IMG/VR virus record: IMGVR_UViG_2565956708_000012
Length of the DNA: 4,475 nt
From: a virus
Lineage: Duplodnaviria; Heunggongvirae; Uroviricota; Caudoviricetes
Reading direction: 5' to 3' (one strand)
How positions within the stretch are numbered: the first letter of the stretch is position 1; every line of letters starts with the position of its first letter. The position numbers were made by a program, and so were the translations under genes. The notes below the pieces were generated by a model. That model worked only from the letters and a program-made list of their open reading frames with translations, did no database searches and was not told the origin of the DNA. This document shows positions 1 to 4,475 of this stretch, in pieces.

Positions 1-186
1 CTTTACAAAGCGGAGGTAATACACCGTAAGAGCTGGAAAAACCGTGCAGAAGTGGAACTGGCCACACTCACGTGGGTGGACTGGTATAACAATCGACGAT
101 TGCTGGAAAGGCTGGGCCATACTCCTCCGGCAGAAGCAGAAAAAGCTTATTATGCTTCCATCGGAAACGATGATCTGGCAGCCTGA
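1..186 (+). CDS. IS3-family transposase OrfB (integrase/rve domain), C-terminal fragment
   Basis: Open frame from window start to TGA at 184..186, translating as LYKAEVIHRKSWKNRAEVELATLTWVDWYNNRRLLERLGHTPPAEAEKAYYASIGNDDLAA. The WxxWYNxxRxHxxLGxxPPAE motif is a typical C-terminal signature of IS3-family OrfB. Confidence 0.85.
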   Translation, partial: LYKAEVIHRKSWKNRAEVELATLTWVDWYNNRRLLERLGHTPPAEAEKAYYASIGNDDLAA

Positions 187-228
187 GTTCACAGATAAAA
201 CACTCTCCAGGAAACCCGGGGCGGTTCA
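1..228 (+). mobile_element. IS3-family insertion sequence (IS629/IS1203-like), right end, 5'-truncated by window edge
   Basis: Frame-1 translation of 1..186 gives an IS3-family OrfB C-terminus, and the element ends at ...CCCGGGGCGGTTCA (228). The last 25 bp (204..228) are the inverted complement of 4382..4406, matching 23/25. The IS629 name is from memory, not a search. Confidence 0.85.
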
Positions 229-462
229 GAGTAGCTTACGAAGCTTACCATCAGCGGCAACCATGTTCATATGAACACAGTTGAATTTGCTAATCTGCTT
301 CATGAGTTTTGTTTGCTGCGTTGACCAGCTCATTCCGAGGTTTTCAACGATTGGCTTCATCGCAACATATGCAACTCCGGCAGCCATGGCGGTGATAATT
401 TGCTGACCGTTGAATGGCACGTAAGAGGTGTTCACTGCTTCTAAAATTGCTATACTATTCAT
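226..462 (-). pseudogene. ant: Antirepressor (Ant/AntA-like) N-terminal fragment, 3'-truncated by the IS insertion
   Basis: ATG at 462..460 sits 9 nt after a GGAG (complement of 473..476). The 78 native codons ([44 protein letters not shown]...) resemble an AntA-type antirepressor N-terminus. The frame ends in a TGA formed by the IS terminus (complement of 226..228), and Ant proteins are normally several-fold longer. The 528 GTG start in the ORF track is an unsupported upstream extension. Confidence 0.55.
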
Positions 463-545
463 GTTGGTTTTTCTCCACGGATTTACCGACAACCGAAGCC
501 CTGACTGTTCCAGCAGTTGGGGCTTCACTGTTTTGATTTCTTTGC
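463..545 (+). ncRNA. Putative sar-like antisense RNA covering the ant ribosome-binding site
   Basis: Extended -10 TGcTATACT at 448..456 on the + strand predicts a start near 463. The transcript would be complementary to the ant SD and start region and end at the 495..526 hairpin plus T-rich tract. This is inferred from sequence and the P22 sar paradigm only. Confidence 0.25.
495..545 (+). terminator. Hairpin with downstream T-rich tract (intrinsic terminator candidate, + strand)
   Basis: A 13-bp stem (495..507 pairing with 514..526, two G-U wobbles, loop ttccag) is followed by actgTTTTgaTTTcTTT at 527..545. The T tract exists only in the + orientation. Confidence 0.35.
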
Positions 546-694
546 CGCATCAAGCATCACTTCTGAAAACGTGCGCTTGCCACTGAATACTCTTTCTCTT
601 CTCAATTTTTCGTTCGTGCCAAATGATTCGCCATGAACAAAATTTGGTCTTAAAATGGTAATCGCAATCTCTTTGACTACTGCATCCAAGCGAA

Positions 695-847
695 TCACAC
701 CGTTACCCCCTCTCTCTTCAGGCTGTCTATCAGGCGCTTGATAACCTCTGAGTTAAACGACCTGCACTCTTCCTTTGCCCTGCTACCGATAGCATCCTTT
801 AACGACTGCGGCATCCTTACCAAAATCTTACTTATTTCTTTCTCCAT
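695..847 (-). CDS. arc: Arc-like ribbon-helix-helix transcriptional repressor (50 aa)
   Basis: ATG at 847..845 follows GGAGGG with a 5-nt spacer. The product MEKEISKILVRMPQSLKDAIGSRAKEECRSFNSEVIKRLIDSLKREGVTV fits the Arc/MetJ RHH pattern (basic beta-strand xVRMPxxL, then RSxNSE helix) and P22 Arc length. It lies upstream of and co-oriented with the ant fragment. The 883 start in the ORF track is an unsupported extension. Confidence 0.7.
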   Translation of the reverse strand: MEKEISKILVRMPQSLKDAIGSRAKEECRSFNSEVIKRLIDSLKREGVTV

Positions 848-961
848 GTTACCCTCCACGCAAACAACTCTTTTCGAATACAAAAGATAGCAAAGTGAGT
901 ATATCTAGTCAAAATTTTTTTGCATACACTTTGCTATCAAATTGAATACCAAAGGTGTTAT
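848..961. promoter_or_regulatory. Divergent promoter/operator region between the arc-like and mnt-like genes
   Basis: 114-bp intergenic region. On the minus strand, a candidate -35 TTGACT (912..907) and -10 TATCTT (889..884) with a 17-bp spacer face the arc-like gene. On the plus strand, TTGCAT (920..925) is a possible -35, but the matching -10 is unclear. The region contains the inverted repeat listed next. Confidence 0.45.
886..938. promoter_or_regulatory. Perfect 12-bp inverted repeat GATAGCAAAGTG ... CACTTTGCTATC (candidate RHH operator half-sites)
   Basis: 886..897 and 927..938 are exact reverse complements, with centres about 41 bp apart. The left copy overlaps the predicted -10 of the minus-strand promoter. 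Confidence 0.5.
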
Positions 962-1210
962 ATGGCAAAGGGTGTGTCAATTTCTCCAACTACGGTAAGA
1001 ATCCCTGAATCTTTACGCGAGGCTCTTGCTGTCAGAGCATCAAAAAATGGTCGCTCTGTTAACTCCGAGATCGTCATGATTTTGCAAGCCGCGATTGATG
1101 AAGATAGGTCGCCAAAGTCAGTTGAGTCATTTGCTCAGCAAGAAGCTGATAAATTCAAAGAGGCGCTACTTGAGACGCTAAAGACCATGTATGCTAAGGA
1201 TGAAAAATAA
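962..1210 (+). CDS. mnt: Mnt-like ribbon-helix-helix repressor (82 aa)
   Basis: ATG at 962 is preceded by AAAGG. The product MAKGVSISPTTVRIPESLREALAVRASKNGRSVNSEIVMILQAAID... has an N-terminal RHH (GRSVNSE motif) and a C-terminal helical tail ending ...LETLKTMYAKDEK, the same size and architecture as P22 Mnt as I recall it. It is divergent from arc. The 920 TTG start in the ORF track is an unsupported extension. Confidence 0.6.
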   Translation: MAKGVSISPTTVRIPESLREALAVRASKNGRSVNSEIVMILQAAIDEDRSPKSVESFAQQEADKFKEALLETLKTMYAKDEK

Positions 1211-1746
1211 TGCTGCACACAATTCATTTCTTATGCCCTGTTAACACTGCCACTGTTGGGCAACTTCAGAACCACTGTCTCACCGCATTATCTCAAGGCG
1301 CAACTGAATTAAATATCCATATATCAAGTCAGGGAGGGGAAACTGCTGCTGGCTTTACTGCGTATAACTTTCTTAAGTCACTCCCTGTTACCGTTAGAAC
1401 TCACAACATAAGCAATGTTGAATCCATAGCTAATATCGTTTTCCTGGCTGGCTCAGAACGTTTCGCAAACCCATTATCAAGATTCCTGTTACATCCTCTA
1501 TTATGGTGCTTTGCCTCCCCAGCCGCCGACCATGCCAGATTGAGAGAGTACGGGAAATGCCTCGATAACGATCTTGATCGCTTCGTTGAGACGTTCAATA
1601 TCGACATCGGAACCCATATTAGGTGGGCATCCCTGATAGCAGACTCGACCATTTTGGATGCTAACAAGGCTCTTGAGCATGGCATAATTAATTCCATAAA
1701 AACTGCAAGGCTGGCATCCAATCAGGCAAACTGGTGGGTTGTTTGA
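1210..1746 (+). CDS. ClpP-fold (peptidase S14-like) serine protease homologue, 178 aa
   Basis: The start overlaps the upstream stop (TAATG at 1208..1212). By eye the translation aligns with E. coli ClpP: NIHISSQGGETAAGFTAY vs YINSPGGVITAGMSIYD, SNVESIANIVFLAG vs GQAASMGAFLLTAG, LLHPL vs MIHQP, and LEHGIINSI vs VEYGLVDSIL. Candidate Ser/His/Asp triad positions are occupied. It lacks the ClpP N-terminal segment. Confidence 0.6.
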   Translation: MLHTIHFLCPVNTATVGQLQNHCLTALSQGATELNIHISSQGGETAAGFTAYNFLKSLPVTVRTHNISNVESIANIVFLAGSERFANPLSRFLLHPLLWCFASPAADHARLREYGKCLDNDLDRFVETFNIDIGTHIRWASLIADSTILDANKALEHGIINSIKTARLASNQANWWVV

Positions 1747-1777
1747 TGGGTAAATCATGATTACTCCTTATAAAAAA

Positions 1778-1796
1778 CCCACCTGACGGTGGGTTT
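1778..1796. terminator. Bidirectional intrinsic terminator between convergent genes
   Basis: aaaaaaCCCACCtgacGGTGGGttt: a 6-bp GC-rich stem (1778..1783 with 1788..1793) and 4-nt loop, flanked by an A tract upstream and a T tract downstream. It sits between the ClpP-like stop (1746) and the YafO-like stop (1795..1797). Confidence 0.6.
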
Positions 1797-2244
1797 AGTC
1801 AAACATAGTGTTTCTAAAGTCTCTCGCATACCCTGCTAACACTCTCATTCTATTATGATTGTTAGCAGACATGTGAGCTACAGGATGAAAAAGAGCAATC
1901 AATGAATACCTGTTCTCATCAAAAAGATTTTGTGCATAAACGAGAGCGGTATTGGATGTTTTATGCCACTGCAACTTTTGCGGTGTGCTGATATCTGTGC
2001 CATTTTTTATTGGCTCAAATTTATTTTCACCAATTGCTAAATGAAGGTGCATAAGGCCTGCATCTTCAATATCAGGAGGTCGATGATAAGAGGTGTCTCT
2101 GCCAAAATAGCTGGGCAACGTTCCCGTAGACTTGTAGATGATAAAATCATCTACAAGTGTTTGTTTTAAATCAGGAAACTCAACAAAAACCGGGGAGAAA
2201 AAATAGTCAAAACTATCCTGATTATATTCCACGGTTACTTGCAT
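1795..2244 (-). CDS. YafO-family toxin (ribosome-dependent mRNA interferase family), 149 aa
   Basis: ATG at 2244..2242 follows GAGG with a 6-nt spacer. The translation aligns with E. coli YafO as I recall it: DFIIYKSTGTLPSYFGRDTSY vs DFISYKRDGVLPDIFGRDALY, HLHLAIGEN vs HIHLANEN, ALVYAQNLFDENRYSLIALFHP vs HLVYCQGAFDEQAWLLIAILKP, and a C-terminal NNHNRMR...ARDFR vs DNNQMHK...AEAFR. Confidence 0.7.
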   Translation of the reverse strand: MQVTVEYNQDSFDYFFSPVFVEFPDLKQTLVDDFIIYKSTGTLPSYFGRDTSYHRPPDIEDAGLMHLHLAIGENKFEPIKNGTDISTPQKLQWHKTSNTALVYAQNLFDENRYSLIALFHPVAHMSANNHNRMRVLAGYARDFRNTMFD

Positions 2245-2252
2245 GTTTTACC

Positions 2253-2819
2253 TCAGTGGAAGTTACCAGAGTGAAACACACGAGTCCCGTGCTCAGCAAG
2301 CGCACGCAAACCAGCCATATCTACGGAACTATCAAAAACAACCGGAACACATGAGCGTTGTTTAATAAGACTATTCAGGTTGGTTACGGCAGATCTGGCA
2401 TCAGCAACAACGATATAGATATCTCTTGCGATCTCTTTAAAATCAGCAGAAGCTTCTTTGAATACCGATTTCATTGCCCCTTCAAGTCCTCTCAATTGAT
2501 GCTCTATCAATCGAGACTTTTCTGGTTCAATGATAGACAACACATTGTCTACATTCTCATCGGTAGCGTTTGCAAGAACACGATAAGCGTATTTCAGCAT
2601 TCGAGACAATTCTTTAATCGAAGACACCGCCTCATGAAGCTCATCATTAGCCCGTTCACTGCTGAATGAGGATTGATGGTAAGCGTGCTGAACGTTATCA
2701 GTAACAACCACCTCACAACTGAACGCAGAAGCTTGCTGTAATAGCAAACCTATTGCGACTCCAGCTTTGGCAGCGTTCAAGCTAAACATTTCATCAATCC
2801 CATTAGTCTCATTGCTCAT
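2253..2819 (-). CDS. Hypothetical protein (188 aa), upstream operon partner of the YafO-family toxin; putative non-canonical antitoxin or regulator
   Basis: ATG at 2819..2817 is preceded by AGGAGG with a 5-nt spacer. The stop at 2255..2253 lies 8 bp before the YafO-like ATG. I recognise no family. The TTG start at 2849 in the ORF track is less likely than the RBS-supported ATG. Confidence 0.55.
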   Translation of the reverse strand: MSNETNGIDEMFSLNAAKAGVAIGLLLQQASAFSCEVVVTDNVQHAYHQSSFSSERANDELHEAVSSIKELSRMLKYAYRVLANATDENVDNVLSIIEPEKSRLIEHQLRGLEGAMKSVFKEASADFKEIARDIYIVVADARSAVTNLNSLIKQRSCVPVVFDSSVDMAGLRALAEHGTRVFHSGNFH

Positions 2820-2886
2820 ACAAACCTCCTTCTTATCGGAGATTATCAATAGCTATGCATCCATTGAATACACGCTATGCGCAATA

Positions 2887-2915
2887 AGTTTACGTCACGT
2901 GATATCATTATGCAA
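2887..2915 (-). promoter_or_regulatory. Candidate sigma70 promoter for the partner/YafO operon, with a palindrome in the spacer
   Basis: On the minus strand, -35 TTGCAT (2915..2910), a 17-bp spacer, and -10 TAAACT (2892..2887). The spacer contains the palindrome TCACGTGA (2895..2902) overlapping GATATC (2901..2906). Confidence 0.35.
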
Positions 2916-2994
2916 CCACCGTTCTATCACCGACTAACTTTACTCCCACTCCTATACATCATCTGGTATCCTGCGCAAAACTAAGGAGGTTGGT

Positions 2995-3345
2995 GTGAAT
3001 GCTCAGTCTGTCATCATGGTTTTCCTTGGGCTGATTGTCGCAAAACTATATCCAGACTGGTGGAAAGGGGCATTAGCTACTGTCGCCATCTATTTGCTTT
3101 TATCCATCGTTAAGCGATCACTCGCTGAGACCGTAAATCAAGCAAAACGTTTCTCATTTAAGAGTTTAATAAACTATGTTACTGGGCTTATTTTTTGCCT
3201 TTCAATTCTGATCGCTTCGGCTTTTTTGCCCGTATCAATAGCTAATTTTTTTGGCGCACCATATGAGGTAGGTTATCTATTCTCTGTTTCCTGTCTTGCC
3301 ATTGCTCTTCTTTACCTGTGGACGAGATCAAAGAATAAAAATTAG
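2995..3345 (+). CDS. Small integral membrane protein, 116 aa, about four predicted transmembrane helices
   Basis: GTG start at 2995 is preceded by a strong AAGGAGG (2983..2989) with a 5-nt spacer. The translation has four hydrophobic stretches (about residues 5-19, 25-39, 58-78, 92-109) separated by short charged loops, with a basic C-terminus. The gene is AT-rich relative to the flanks and divergent from the partner/YafO operon. Confidence 0.6.
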   Translation: MNAQSVIMVFLGLIVAKLYPDWWKGALATVAIYLLLSIVKRSLAETVNQAKRFSFKSLINYVTGLIFCLSILIASAFLPVSIANFFGAPYEVGYLFSVSCLAIALLYLWTRSKNKN

Positions 3346-3362
3346 CCATCCGTGGCTGCCAG

Positions 3363-4381
3363 TTATTGAGCTTCTTTTTGTGATGCCTGTGCGACTCTGG
3401 TGAGCGATTGTGTGACCGTACTGATCGCTCTGTCATATGCTGTGCTACCTTTTGGCGTATTTGCCAGACGTAACAAGGCATTTCGTATAACAGGGCTTTC
3501 GTATGCCTTCGCAGCTCCTCCTACGACACCAGCAGCAGGAACAACAAACGCAGCCGTTTTTAGCATCCCCGCTAATACTGCTGCGTTTATGATGCCACCA
3601 CCAACTAACAATCCATAAAGCTGCTGACCATTTAAGTTTTGAACGTTCGCTTTTGCCGCGTGTCTTGTATCGTTGAGGTATTTAATAACGCCGTCCAGTT
3701 CCTTTCCATGTACGCCTTTAAAGAAAGTTGCTGATTGCTTCCTGTTCCGGTGTAACGCATTAATAAACTTTTCAACACTAATATTTCCAGACGGATCAGT
3801 CGCCTTATCTACAGCATTCTGAACTATGGCTGCTCGTGCGTTTTGCCTACCATTGTCATCCAGAAGCCTGTAAAGCTGAGAACGTTCTGATGGGTTTTGG
3901 CTAAAAACGAGTTTTGTTACATCCTCAGGTGTAGCCTTGCCGCTGGCTATTGCCTTTTGAACGCGCGTTCTTCCCATCATGTCATTGAATCTAGCCCATG
4001 AGCGATCAACCCTAGACATATTGGCAGCTTCTTCTGAGCCTAGTTTTTGGGATACTGCTTTTTTCATATCCGCTGTATATGCCTTGTAGACAATATCGCT
4101 GGCTTTCTGGAGCGTGTCTTTATCAACAGTCTCGTTTGAATTCATGAACCGCTTTCGAAGGTCAGTTCTGTTTTCTCTCGCCAGACGCAGGTCATTGGGT
4201 CCGCTGGTGATATCGTCTTTAAATTGCTGCAAGACTTTTACCGCGGCTCTATCCTGAGATTTGCCCGGGCGGCTTAACACGGCAATCTGATTGTCGATAG
4301 CTTTTACCGTGTTTGAGAGATCGACAGGGGTATCCCCCATAGCGTCAATTATGCGGTTATATCGCTTTCCTGCTGCCTCAA
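3363..4381 (-). pseudogene. Large protein, 5'-truncated by IS insertion; possibly a phage DNA-ejection/internal protein (gp16-like by synteny)
   Basis: The minus-strand frame is open from the TAA stop (complement of 3363..3365) through the IS junction at 4381/4382 and on to a stop inside the IS. The first ATG (4340) has no SD. The product has a glycine-rich hydrophobic segment (LLVGGGIINAAVLAGMLKTAAFVVPAAGVVGGAAKA). The gp16-like call rests only on its position relative to mnt. Confidence 0.4.
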
Positions 4382-4475
4382 TGAACCGCCCCGGGAATCC
4401 TGGAGACTAAACTTCCTGAGAAAGAGGTAAACAGGATGACTAAAAATACTCGTTTTTCCCCCGAAGTCCGTCAAC
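4382..4475 (+). mobile_element. IS3-family insertion sequence (IS629/IS1203-like), left end, truncated by window edge
   Basis: Terminus TGAACCGCCCCGGGAATCCTGGAGA (4382..4406) is the inverted repeat of 204..228. It is followed by an RBS (GAGG) and the orfA start. It has the same orientation as the copy at 1..228. Confidence 0.85.
4436..4475 (+). CDS. IS3-family transposase OrfA, N-terminal fragment (MTKNTRFSPEVRQ...)
   Basis: ATG at 4436 is 7 nt after AGAGG. The N-terminus MTKNTRFSPEVRQ is the characteristic start of IS3-family OrfA (helix-turn-helix protein) of the IS629 group, from memory. Confidence 0.8.
   Translation, partial: MTKNTRFSPEVRQ

Follow-up and report, generated by a model that had tools for sequence, protein, structure and literature searches.

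Genes and features of the locus

The window, i.e. the whole 4,475-nucleotide stretch of DNA analysed here, contains 4.15 kb of a P22-like (CUS-3-like) Escherichia coli prophage, enclosed by two IS629 copies running in the same direction (Table 1). It corresponds to an entire contig located between two N-gaps of the draft scaffold KI538675.1 (assembly GCA_000494955.1), where it is the reverse complement of locus L005 5988-10462 with flanking N-runs of 1125 and 1090. Since the contig is bounded by scaffold gaps on both sides, the window ends are interpreted as collapsed IS repeats.

Table 1. Features of the 4,475-nucleotide window and the evidence for each.
Feature	Position	Strand	Evidence
Left IS629-isoform copy, 3' end	1..228	+	IS positions 1083-1310, 100% match to reference copy
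ant, truncated (first 78 of 300 codons)	229..462	-	Pfam P22_AR_N, E 2.9e-18; translation; S88 Ant, 300 aa
sar antisense RNA, immI region	463..529	+	Rfam RF00262, full length, 83.9 bits (gathering score 43), E 2.7e-17
57-aa phage ORF, hypothetical in S88	525..698	-	phrog_17642, E 1e-43; sits between arc and ant
arc-like repressor gene, 50 aa	695..847	-	Pfam Arc, E 5e-12
mnt-like repressor gene, 82 aa, divergent from arc	962..1210	+	Pfam Arc / FitA-like RHH
ClpP-like serine protease family gene, 178 aa, phage accessory	1210..1746	+	Pfam CLP_protease, E 2e-11; phrog_94
YafO-family toxin-like gene, 149 aa	1795..2244	-	Pfam YafO_toxin, E 3e-22
188-aa gene directly upstream of the YafO-like gene	2253..2819	-	phrog_8416, E 2e-96
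Small gene, 116 aa from GTG 2995 (S88 annotation starts at 3016)	2995..3345	+	ORF list
gp16-type DNA ejection gene, 3' part (C-terminal 338 of 670 codons)	3363..4381	-	phrog_770
CAA, 3-bp target-site duplication of the right IS (inner copy)	4379..4381		Flank sequences; S88 mapping
Right IS629-isoform copy, 5' end	4382..4475	+	IS positions 1-94, 100% match to reference copy

The DNA between the two IS pieces begins with a secondary immI region (mnt, arc, sar and the truncated ant'), the main repressor region being situated elsewhere. Its organization is that of the immI region of phage P22 (mnt-arc-sar-ant), with divergent mnt-like and arc-like genes, the sar RNA and the N-terminal domain of ant found in the same order, and the whole placed between gp16 and the tailspike gene. 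It differs from P22 in that ant is cut after codon 78, its stop codon being supplied by the IS end (complement of the terminal TCA at 226-228), in the additional ORF between arc and ant, and in the interval from mnt to gp16, occupied here by the ClpP-like gene, the YafO-like gene and two unknown genes. In that interval P22 carries sieA.

Searches with the two unknown genes gave no Pfam family for the 188-aa product and no family match in Pfam, PADLOC or phrog for the 116-aa one, whose translation, read by eye, is rich in hydrophobic residues. Among the accessory genes PADLOC found no credible match to a defence system, the sole hit being ZorA (E 0.004). The gp16 fragment aligns to positions 312-667 of the 668-position profile of the phrog_770 DNA transfer protein; the full gene of S88 measures 2013 nt, and the N-terminal 332 codons are found directly past the right IS in the scaffold. 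The first-pass annotation, made from the letters of the window, had noted that each IS junction cuts a phage gene, ant on the left and a large minus-strand ORF on the right, and both cuts were recovered, the latter ORF being the gp16 fragment.

The same annotation had called for a comparison with an intact prophage. Such a prophage exists in S88, where positions 20003-24155 are string-identical (100%) to the 4153-bp block and colinear with it. On the evidence of annotated genes and Pfam matches in S88, SCU-116, FY26 and the source scaffold, the block belongs to the P22-like (CUS-3-like) prophages of argW, which combine ejection, head-completion, coat and portal genes of P22 type with an immI region, an endosialidase tailspike and an intS gene beside tRNA-Arg. 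The location next to tRNA-Arg and intS, the ejection genes, the immI region and the tailspike, together with a neuO-type acyltransferase, are shared with CUS-3 and the CUS-3-like prophages integrated at argW-dsdC in E. coli K1, and phages of this type at this site are prone to decay (PMC9659370). The best match to the block among phage records was phiv205-1, with 38% coverage, so that the accessory half appears to be absent from the free phages of the searched collection. CUS-3 itself was not among the phage records matching most of the block; "CUS-3-like" is thus a name given by architecture and locus rather than by direct sequence comparison.

Identity and ends of the IS629 copies

As the first-pass annotation had proposed, the two IS copies bracketing the 4.15 kb lie on the + strand in the same orientation. 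We compared them with a 1310-bp reference copy of the IS3 family (locus L001 6002-7311). In the left piece, the orfB/transposase reading frame runs to its stop at 184-186, ahead of the right terminal inverted repeat (204-228); the right piece opens with the left terminal inverted repeat (4382-4406), and the start codon of orfA follows at 4436. The boundaries of these repeats had been correctly placed: the 25-nt ends are imperfect, of the TG...CA type, and TGAACCGCCCCGGGAATCCTGGAGA agrees with the complement of 204-228 at 23/25 positions. Allowing up to three mismatches, this 25-mer occurs in the window at these two sites only, and was found in none of 200 shuffles.

The assignment to IS629 is based on the length of 1310 bp and on a DNA identity above the isoform level (about 95%) with named IS629/IS1203 copies, namely 96.1-96.2% over 1310 bp with pO157 copies annotated as IS1203 family and 99.2-99.6% with Shigella plasmid copies. 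IS3411 is itself an isoform of IS629, whose target duplications measure 3-4 bp and are retained by only 21/47 of the O157 copies, 62% being located in prophages (PMC3271280); duplications of 3 bp each were found here for the right copy and for a further copy in the coat gene. The element studied here resembles the IS629 copies of E. coli O157:H7 prophages and O-islands in its length, its 3-bp duplication and its prophage location, and also in that the duplication is missing from some copies, which mark deletions between copies (PMC3271280, PMC3064760). It differs in residing in a CUS-3-like phage of K1-type E. coli, instead of an O157 lambdoid prophage or ter island, and its junctions (S88 20003 and 24153-24155) are absent from 5426 complete genomes.

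Insertions in gp16 and in the coat gene

Both outer ends of the IS copies, whose search the first-pass annotation had recommended, were located past the scaffold gaps, and all four IS ends are present in direct orientation. The outer IRL is preceded by tailspike DNA, and the outer IRR, after which the second copy of CAA stands, is followed by CAATGAATTT, the remainder of gp16. On S88 the flanks of the right IS fall at 24153 and 24155 and so overlap by 3 bp, at a target that in uninterrupted form reads CTGCCTCAATGAATTT. The right copy is a simple insertion in the ejection gene gp16, with a 3-bp duplication CAA.

Past this IS, gp16 continues at once, and after it come gp20, gp7, the head-completion genes and the coat gene. 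The latter is interrupted, 6.8 kb further on, by a third IS copy, whose flanks at S88 30970 and 30972 again overlap by 3 bp and which shares the orientation of the other two. The description of the window as a prophage remnant reduced to its immunity and accessory genes was therefore wrong, gp16 and structural genes extending beyond the right IS. A cluster of IS junctions between S88 24153 and 24301 in loci L010-L019 was considered as a possible IS629 hot spot in gp16 and was rejected as ascertainment bias, because these loci had been retrieved by an exact 325-aa ORF, which is called only where a break in gp16 lies directly before it.

A single assembly carries both junctions, and in it the inside of each bracketing copy is an N-gap, so that the completeness of the IS copies and the order of the contigs rest on scaffolding. 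The arrangement could in principle be an assembly or scaffolding artefact, in which contigs ending in collapsed repeats have other IS copies as true neighbours, be it through an inversion, a translocation or a circle of 5.46 kb joining one IS to the block. This would fit with the window being exactly one contig bounded by N-gaps, with the 11-27 copies of the IS per related genome, and with an IS-mediated inversion of the same block in L014. We nevertheless regard it as very unlikely, since the contig beyond the right gap opens with the IS end and goes on with the exact gp16 continuation and the 3-bp duplication, as a simple insertion predicts, and past the left gap the scaffold resumes with this prophage's tailspike 3' end, with a junction (S88 16804) also present in closed genomes. 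Moreover, the gap sizes are compatible with one IS, at 1090 and 1125 N for an expected 988 and 1157 bases. We thus favour the scaffolded order, in which each gap probably holds one complete IS.

Loss of 3198 bp at the left copy

The left IS has a different history. Its flanks map to S88 16804 and 20003, 3198 bp of the S88 sequence being absent, and it stands in place of the 3' part of ant and most of the tailspike gene. The lack of a target duplication is explained by this deletion. In the complete chromosome OZ040687.1, this same ant junction is occupied by a complete 1310-bp IS, and when two direct IS copies of this chromosome are crossed over in silico, the left IS results exactly, with both of its junctions. 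Each half-junction is common to other genomes but with different partners: 20003 is joined to 18973, 18484 or 16804, and 16804 (tailspike 3' end) is elsewhere paired with 17669, 18219 or 19767, or, in AH19K002, with a fourth ant endpoint that the span of the piece places near 19741, about 262 bp past that of the window. No genome with an ancestral simple insertion at 16804 or 20003 was found.

The 3198-bp loss most likely originated in homologous recombination between direct IS copies that were present earlier. The loss might instead have been made by the transposase, by one-ended adjacent deletion or by local transposition followed by resolution, possibly with help of the IS-excision-enhancer type. 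Deletion endpoints nested around the fixed junctions 16804 and 20003 would agree with such a process, and both IS629-associated deletions and an enhancer protein have been documented (PMC9943667). We consider this origin rather unlikely, if still worth weighing: the crossover model yields the junction pair exactly from an existing genome.

IS3-family elements transpose by a copy-out-paste-in mechanism that leaves the donor in place, which would again speak against a transposase-made loss. As causes of the 3198-bp loss, recombination, transposase-driven adjacent deletion, and local hopping followed by recombination are not distinguishable here.

Is the IS-flanked block a composite transposon?

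IS3411 flanks the citrate transposon Tn3411 as direct repeats. The window shares with composites of the Tn3411 type two complete-looking direct IS copies whose IRL and IRR face outward around a cargo, and the first-pass annotation had taken it for a composite-transposon-like unit able to move. The geometry stood: the outer ends are both there, intact and correctly oriented, and in related genomes identical IS copies are complete and annotated with a frameshifted orfAB and a pseudoknot. The movement found no support. In contrast with Tn3411-type composites, there is no unit-level target duplication, the outer flanks being CCA and CAA, the latter matching the flank on the inner side of the right IS, within gp16, and not the far outer flank of the unit; the two IS copies have separate histories, and the cargo sits in its ancestral context, base-for-base colinear with S88. 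The block was found in a single genomic context, the CUS-3-like prophage. A search of 72,556 plasmids gave no IS-flanked or near-complete copy of it, nor did one appear elsewhere among the complete genomes with matches, where the inspection of the locus covered the records retrieved. In addition, the transposase genes of both bracketing copies lie in the unsequenced part. Because of the colinearity with S88, the missing unit-level duplication and the negative plasmid search, the composite geometry, although real, would have formed in place, and a functional composite transposon, made of the IS copies and the block and having moved or able to move through its outer IRL and IRR, is in our view extremely improbable.

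The other fate that had been suggested, deletion of the block by recombination between the IS copies, appears realistic, the left copy being most likely the footprint of such a loss, and recombination between IS629 copies is known to cause deletions in O157 (PMC3064760). The proneness of the block to deletion finds good support by analogy, and the block may prove unstable in future. The predicted product itself, joining tailspike 16804 to gp16 24153 through one IS, was not found among 5426 complete E. coli genomes; its left outer junction alone occurs in four or five of them, and neither junction of the window is present in the set as one piece.

Probable prophage decay by IS629

That multicopy IS629 inserts into prophages and then deletes them piecemeal is already known. 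Taken together, our results very probably reflect prophage decay in place, in which separate IS629 events surrounded a segment of a CUS-3-like prophage and the left copy marks a loss. We propose that the segment belongs to a P22-family prophage that occupies tRNA-Arg (argW) in an E. coli strain with an active IS629 isoform; it spans the 5' end of ant, the immI genes, four accessory genes and the 3' half of gp16. The right copy would have entered gp16 by copy-out-paste-in, with duplication of CAA; the left copy would be a hybrid remaining after the loss of the 3' part of ant and most of the endosialidase tailspike gene, most likely by homologous recombination between earlier direct copies; and the coat gene is interrupted by the third direct copy. 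The composite-transposon geometry would then be a by-product of decay, and the block would more likely be lost by RecA-dependent crossover between the 1310-bp repeats than transpose as a unit. For readings made from sequence alone, contig ends that stop in IS repeats can mimic a neat composite unit.

The block survives base-identical between IS copies in relatives without most of the prophage (among them SCU-116, L010, L013 and L016). That the mnt-arc, ClpP-like and YafO-like block is kept by selection seems improbable to us; if true, IS629 erosion would carve out of a decaying phage a toxin- or defence-type accessory module, which could in principle be mobilised by the IS pair. On the reading of decay in place, the defect of the prophage in this strain would be explained at the base-pair level, with tailspike, ant, gp16 and coat genes all disrupted, and the left copy would provide a concrete example of one IS copy recording an earlier IS-IS deletion.

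Identity of the IS copies and limits of the window

An IS3-family element of 1310 bp (reference copy, L001 6002-7311) matches both ends of the window at 100% identity: its positions 1083-1310 match the first 228 bases and its positions 1-94 the last 94, both fragments lying on the + strand. The element shares 96.1-96.2% identity over its full length with the pO157 copies annotated as IS1203 family, and 99.2-99.6% with copies on Shigella virulence plasmids. Isoforms of IS629 include IS1203 and IS3411, and its subtypes diverge by 4-5% (PMC3271280). The "IS629-like" label of the first-pass annotation is therefore correct, as is its reading of two direct copies bracketing the block. The terminal inverted repeats that it had paired, 204-228 and 4382-4406, are complementary at 23 of 25 bases; with up to 3 mismatches allowed, the terminal 25-mer occurs in the window only at these two arms, and in none of 200 shuffles. 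In the L004 genome, a variant of the IS with 97.9% identity (L004 2552-3861) lies in the same prophage beside copies that match at 100%, so that this genome has two coexisting IS629 subtypes; the IS copy on the S88 plasmid shows the same 97.9% identity.

One record, scaffold KI538675.1 of GCA_000494955.1 (L005 and L019), has both junction-specific fragments (78-aa Ant and 325-aa gp16). The window is the exact reverse complement of L005 5988-10462 on this scaffold, a contig flanked by N-runs of 1125 and 1090. At 1090 and 1125 N, these gaps approximate the 988 and 1157 bases required for one complete IS. The window ends are thus no biological boundary: a short-read assembly stopped there inside collapsed IS repeats. 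The transposase genes of both copies are N-gaps, contig order around the window depends on scaffolding, and neither window junction was found in any closed genome (5426 complete genomes searched).

Content of the bracketed block

The block, 229-4381, is string-identical to L020 20003-24155, L020 being the P22-like prophage of E. coli S88, which is intact. It adjoins tRNA-Arg and intS and has an acyltransferase and an endosialidase-type tailspike, the architecture and locus given for CUS-3-like phages (PMC9659370). Both ant and gp16 are partial in the block, therefore each junction cuts a phage gene, as first proposed.

Features of the block between the two IS copies
Feature	Position	Strand	Remarks
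ant, first 78 of 300 codons			Pfam P22_AR_N; stop codon provided by the IS end
sar antisense RNA	463-529	+	Rfam RF00262, 83.9 bits, full-length
57-aa ORF			function unknown
arc-like and mnt-like genes			divergent
12-nt inverted repeat	886-897 / 927-938		perfect; GATAGCAAAGTG / CACTTTGCTATC; arc-mnt divergent promoter region
ClpP-family gene	within 1210-3345
Hairpin	1767-1797		AAAAAACCCACCTGACGGTGGGTTT; between convergent ClpP-like and YafO-like genes
YafO-family toxin-like gene	within 1210-3345
188-aa gene	within 1210-3345		function unknown; upstream partner of the YafO-family gene
116-aa gene	within 1210-3345		function unknown; many hydrophobic residues
gp16-type ejection protein			C-terminal 338 of 670 codons

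The sar RNA thus outlives its target gene, ant, which is cut after codon 78. The 12-nt inverted repeat overlaps a minus-strand promoter-like site (912-884) and is probably an operator arrangement of the Arc/Mnt type. The hairpin looks like a bidirectional terminator and is absent from the output of a simple terminator scan. P22 carries sieA between mnt and gp16, the site of the ClpP-family, YafO-family, 188-aa and 116-aa genes here. This accessory region may represent an exclusion module or a toxin-antitoxin module; its genes match no PADLOC defence model, and free phage records match the ant-to-ClpP half only (phiv205-1, 38% of the block).

The right copy

Scaffold sequence past the right gap begins with IS positions 1252-1310 and runs on into CAATGAATTTTTG; the block-side flank ends in CTGCCTCAA, and S88 without the insertion reads CTGCCTCAATGAATTT. 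The flanks map to S88 24153 and 24155, a 3-base overlap with CAA on both sides, thus the right copy is a simple insertion in gp16, its right terminal repeat (IRR) and target duplication both in place. The CAA fits the 3-4 bp expected for IS629 (PMC3271280). An apparent cluster of IS junctions in gp16 (S88 24153-24301) is due to ascertainment, the loci having been retrieved via the exact 325-aa ORF.

Beyond this IS lie the gp16 N-terminal part, gp20, gp7, head-completion genes and the coat gene. The coat gene is interrupted by a third, like-oriented IS629 copy (L019 562-1861; S88 30970-30972), which has flanks overlapping by 3 bp and lies 6.8 kb past the right copy. The prophage thus has several segments bounded by IS copies, the bracketed block among them. 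Since structural genes extend for at least 10 kb past the right IS, this genome does not contain the remnant "reduced to its immunity and accessory genes" that had been proposed. As for immunity, the block has the secondary immI region only, the S24-peptidase repressor gene lying elsewhere in the prophage (read in L010). The description does fit some relatives: in SCU-116, L010, L013 and L016 an IS at gp16 adjoins genes of the early or replication type, the entire morphogenetic region having been lost.

Origin of the left copy

Past the left gap, tailspike DNA ending at S88 16804 (GGATTGGAGCCA) is followed by IS positions 1-94, which locates the left terminal repeat (IRL); the inner flank begins at S88 20003 (GAGTAGC). 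Comparison of the two flanks revealed no target duplication. Relative to S88, 3198 bp are absent: 222 ant codons, the spacer and the 2946-nt tailspike gene except for its last 517 nt.

Both half-junctions occur in other genomes with other partners. Across the IS, the IRR-ant junction at 20003 is joined to tailspike positions 18973 (L004, L006), 18484 (L003) and, in the window genome, 16804; the tailspike-IRL junction at 16804 is joined to 17669 (L003), 18219 (L004), 19767 (SCU-116 and three more closed genomes) and, in AH19K002, an ant endpoint placed by piece span ~262 bp beyond that of the window. The complete chromosome OZ040687.1 (L003) has two direct IS copies, 16804-IS-17669 and 18484-IS-20003, enclosing a tailspike fragment; an in-silico crossover removing this fragment and one IS yields both window-genome junctions at one-IS spacing. 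In O157, fresh IS629 insertions recombine with older copies, deleting the intervening DNA (PMC3064760), and fewer than half of the copies keep a target duplication (PMC3271280). Formation of the left copy by recombination between direct IS copies matches this behaviour; we consider it less likely that the loss was instead an adjacent deletion driven by the transposase.

Mobility and decay

The geometry is that of a composite transposon, with direct copies and IRL and IRR facing outward, but the evidence says that the unit was assembled in place and not moved. Cargo position and order are ancestral with respect to S88, the right IS carries its own duplication within gp16, the outer flanks differ (CCA vs CAA), and a plasmid search did not find the block; genomes with most of it have it inside this prophage at every locus inspected. 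That the block is deletion-prone is plausible, since a stretch of 12 kb contains three identical 1310-bp repeats in direct orientation and a footprint of this kind has been demonstrated beside the block, at the left copy, but the predicted product, 16804-IS-24153, had no match in 5426 complete genomes.

Relatives exhibit other rearrangements. In GCA_037080135.1 (L014 8504-16333) the same block is inverted, with IS copies of opposite orientation on its two sides, between which a 3-bp duplication (S88 24299-24301) is split; this marks an IS-mediated inversion. IS629 can also strike the accessory block: in strain FY26 (L002 10038-11347) it interrupts the ClpP-like gene (duplication S88 21009-21011), a junction also present in L017 (13107-13325). 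In CP121347.1 (L012 9471-10001), the gp16 fragment and an early gene of the Ead/Ea22 type are ~0.5 kb apart and no IS was detected between them, which suggests a large deletion without residual IS, or later excision of the IS.

The original observation is therefore correct, and the phenomenon is IS629-driven decay of a CUS-3-like prophage, an ordinary and well understood process, already known in kind.
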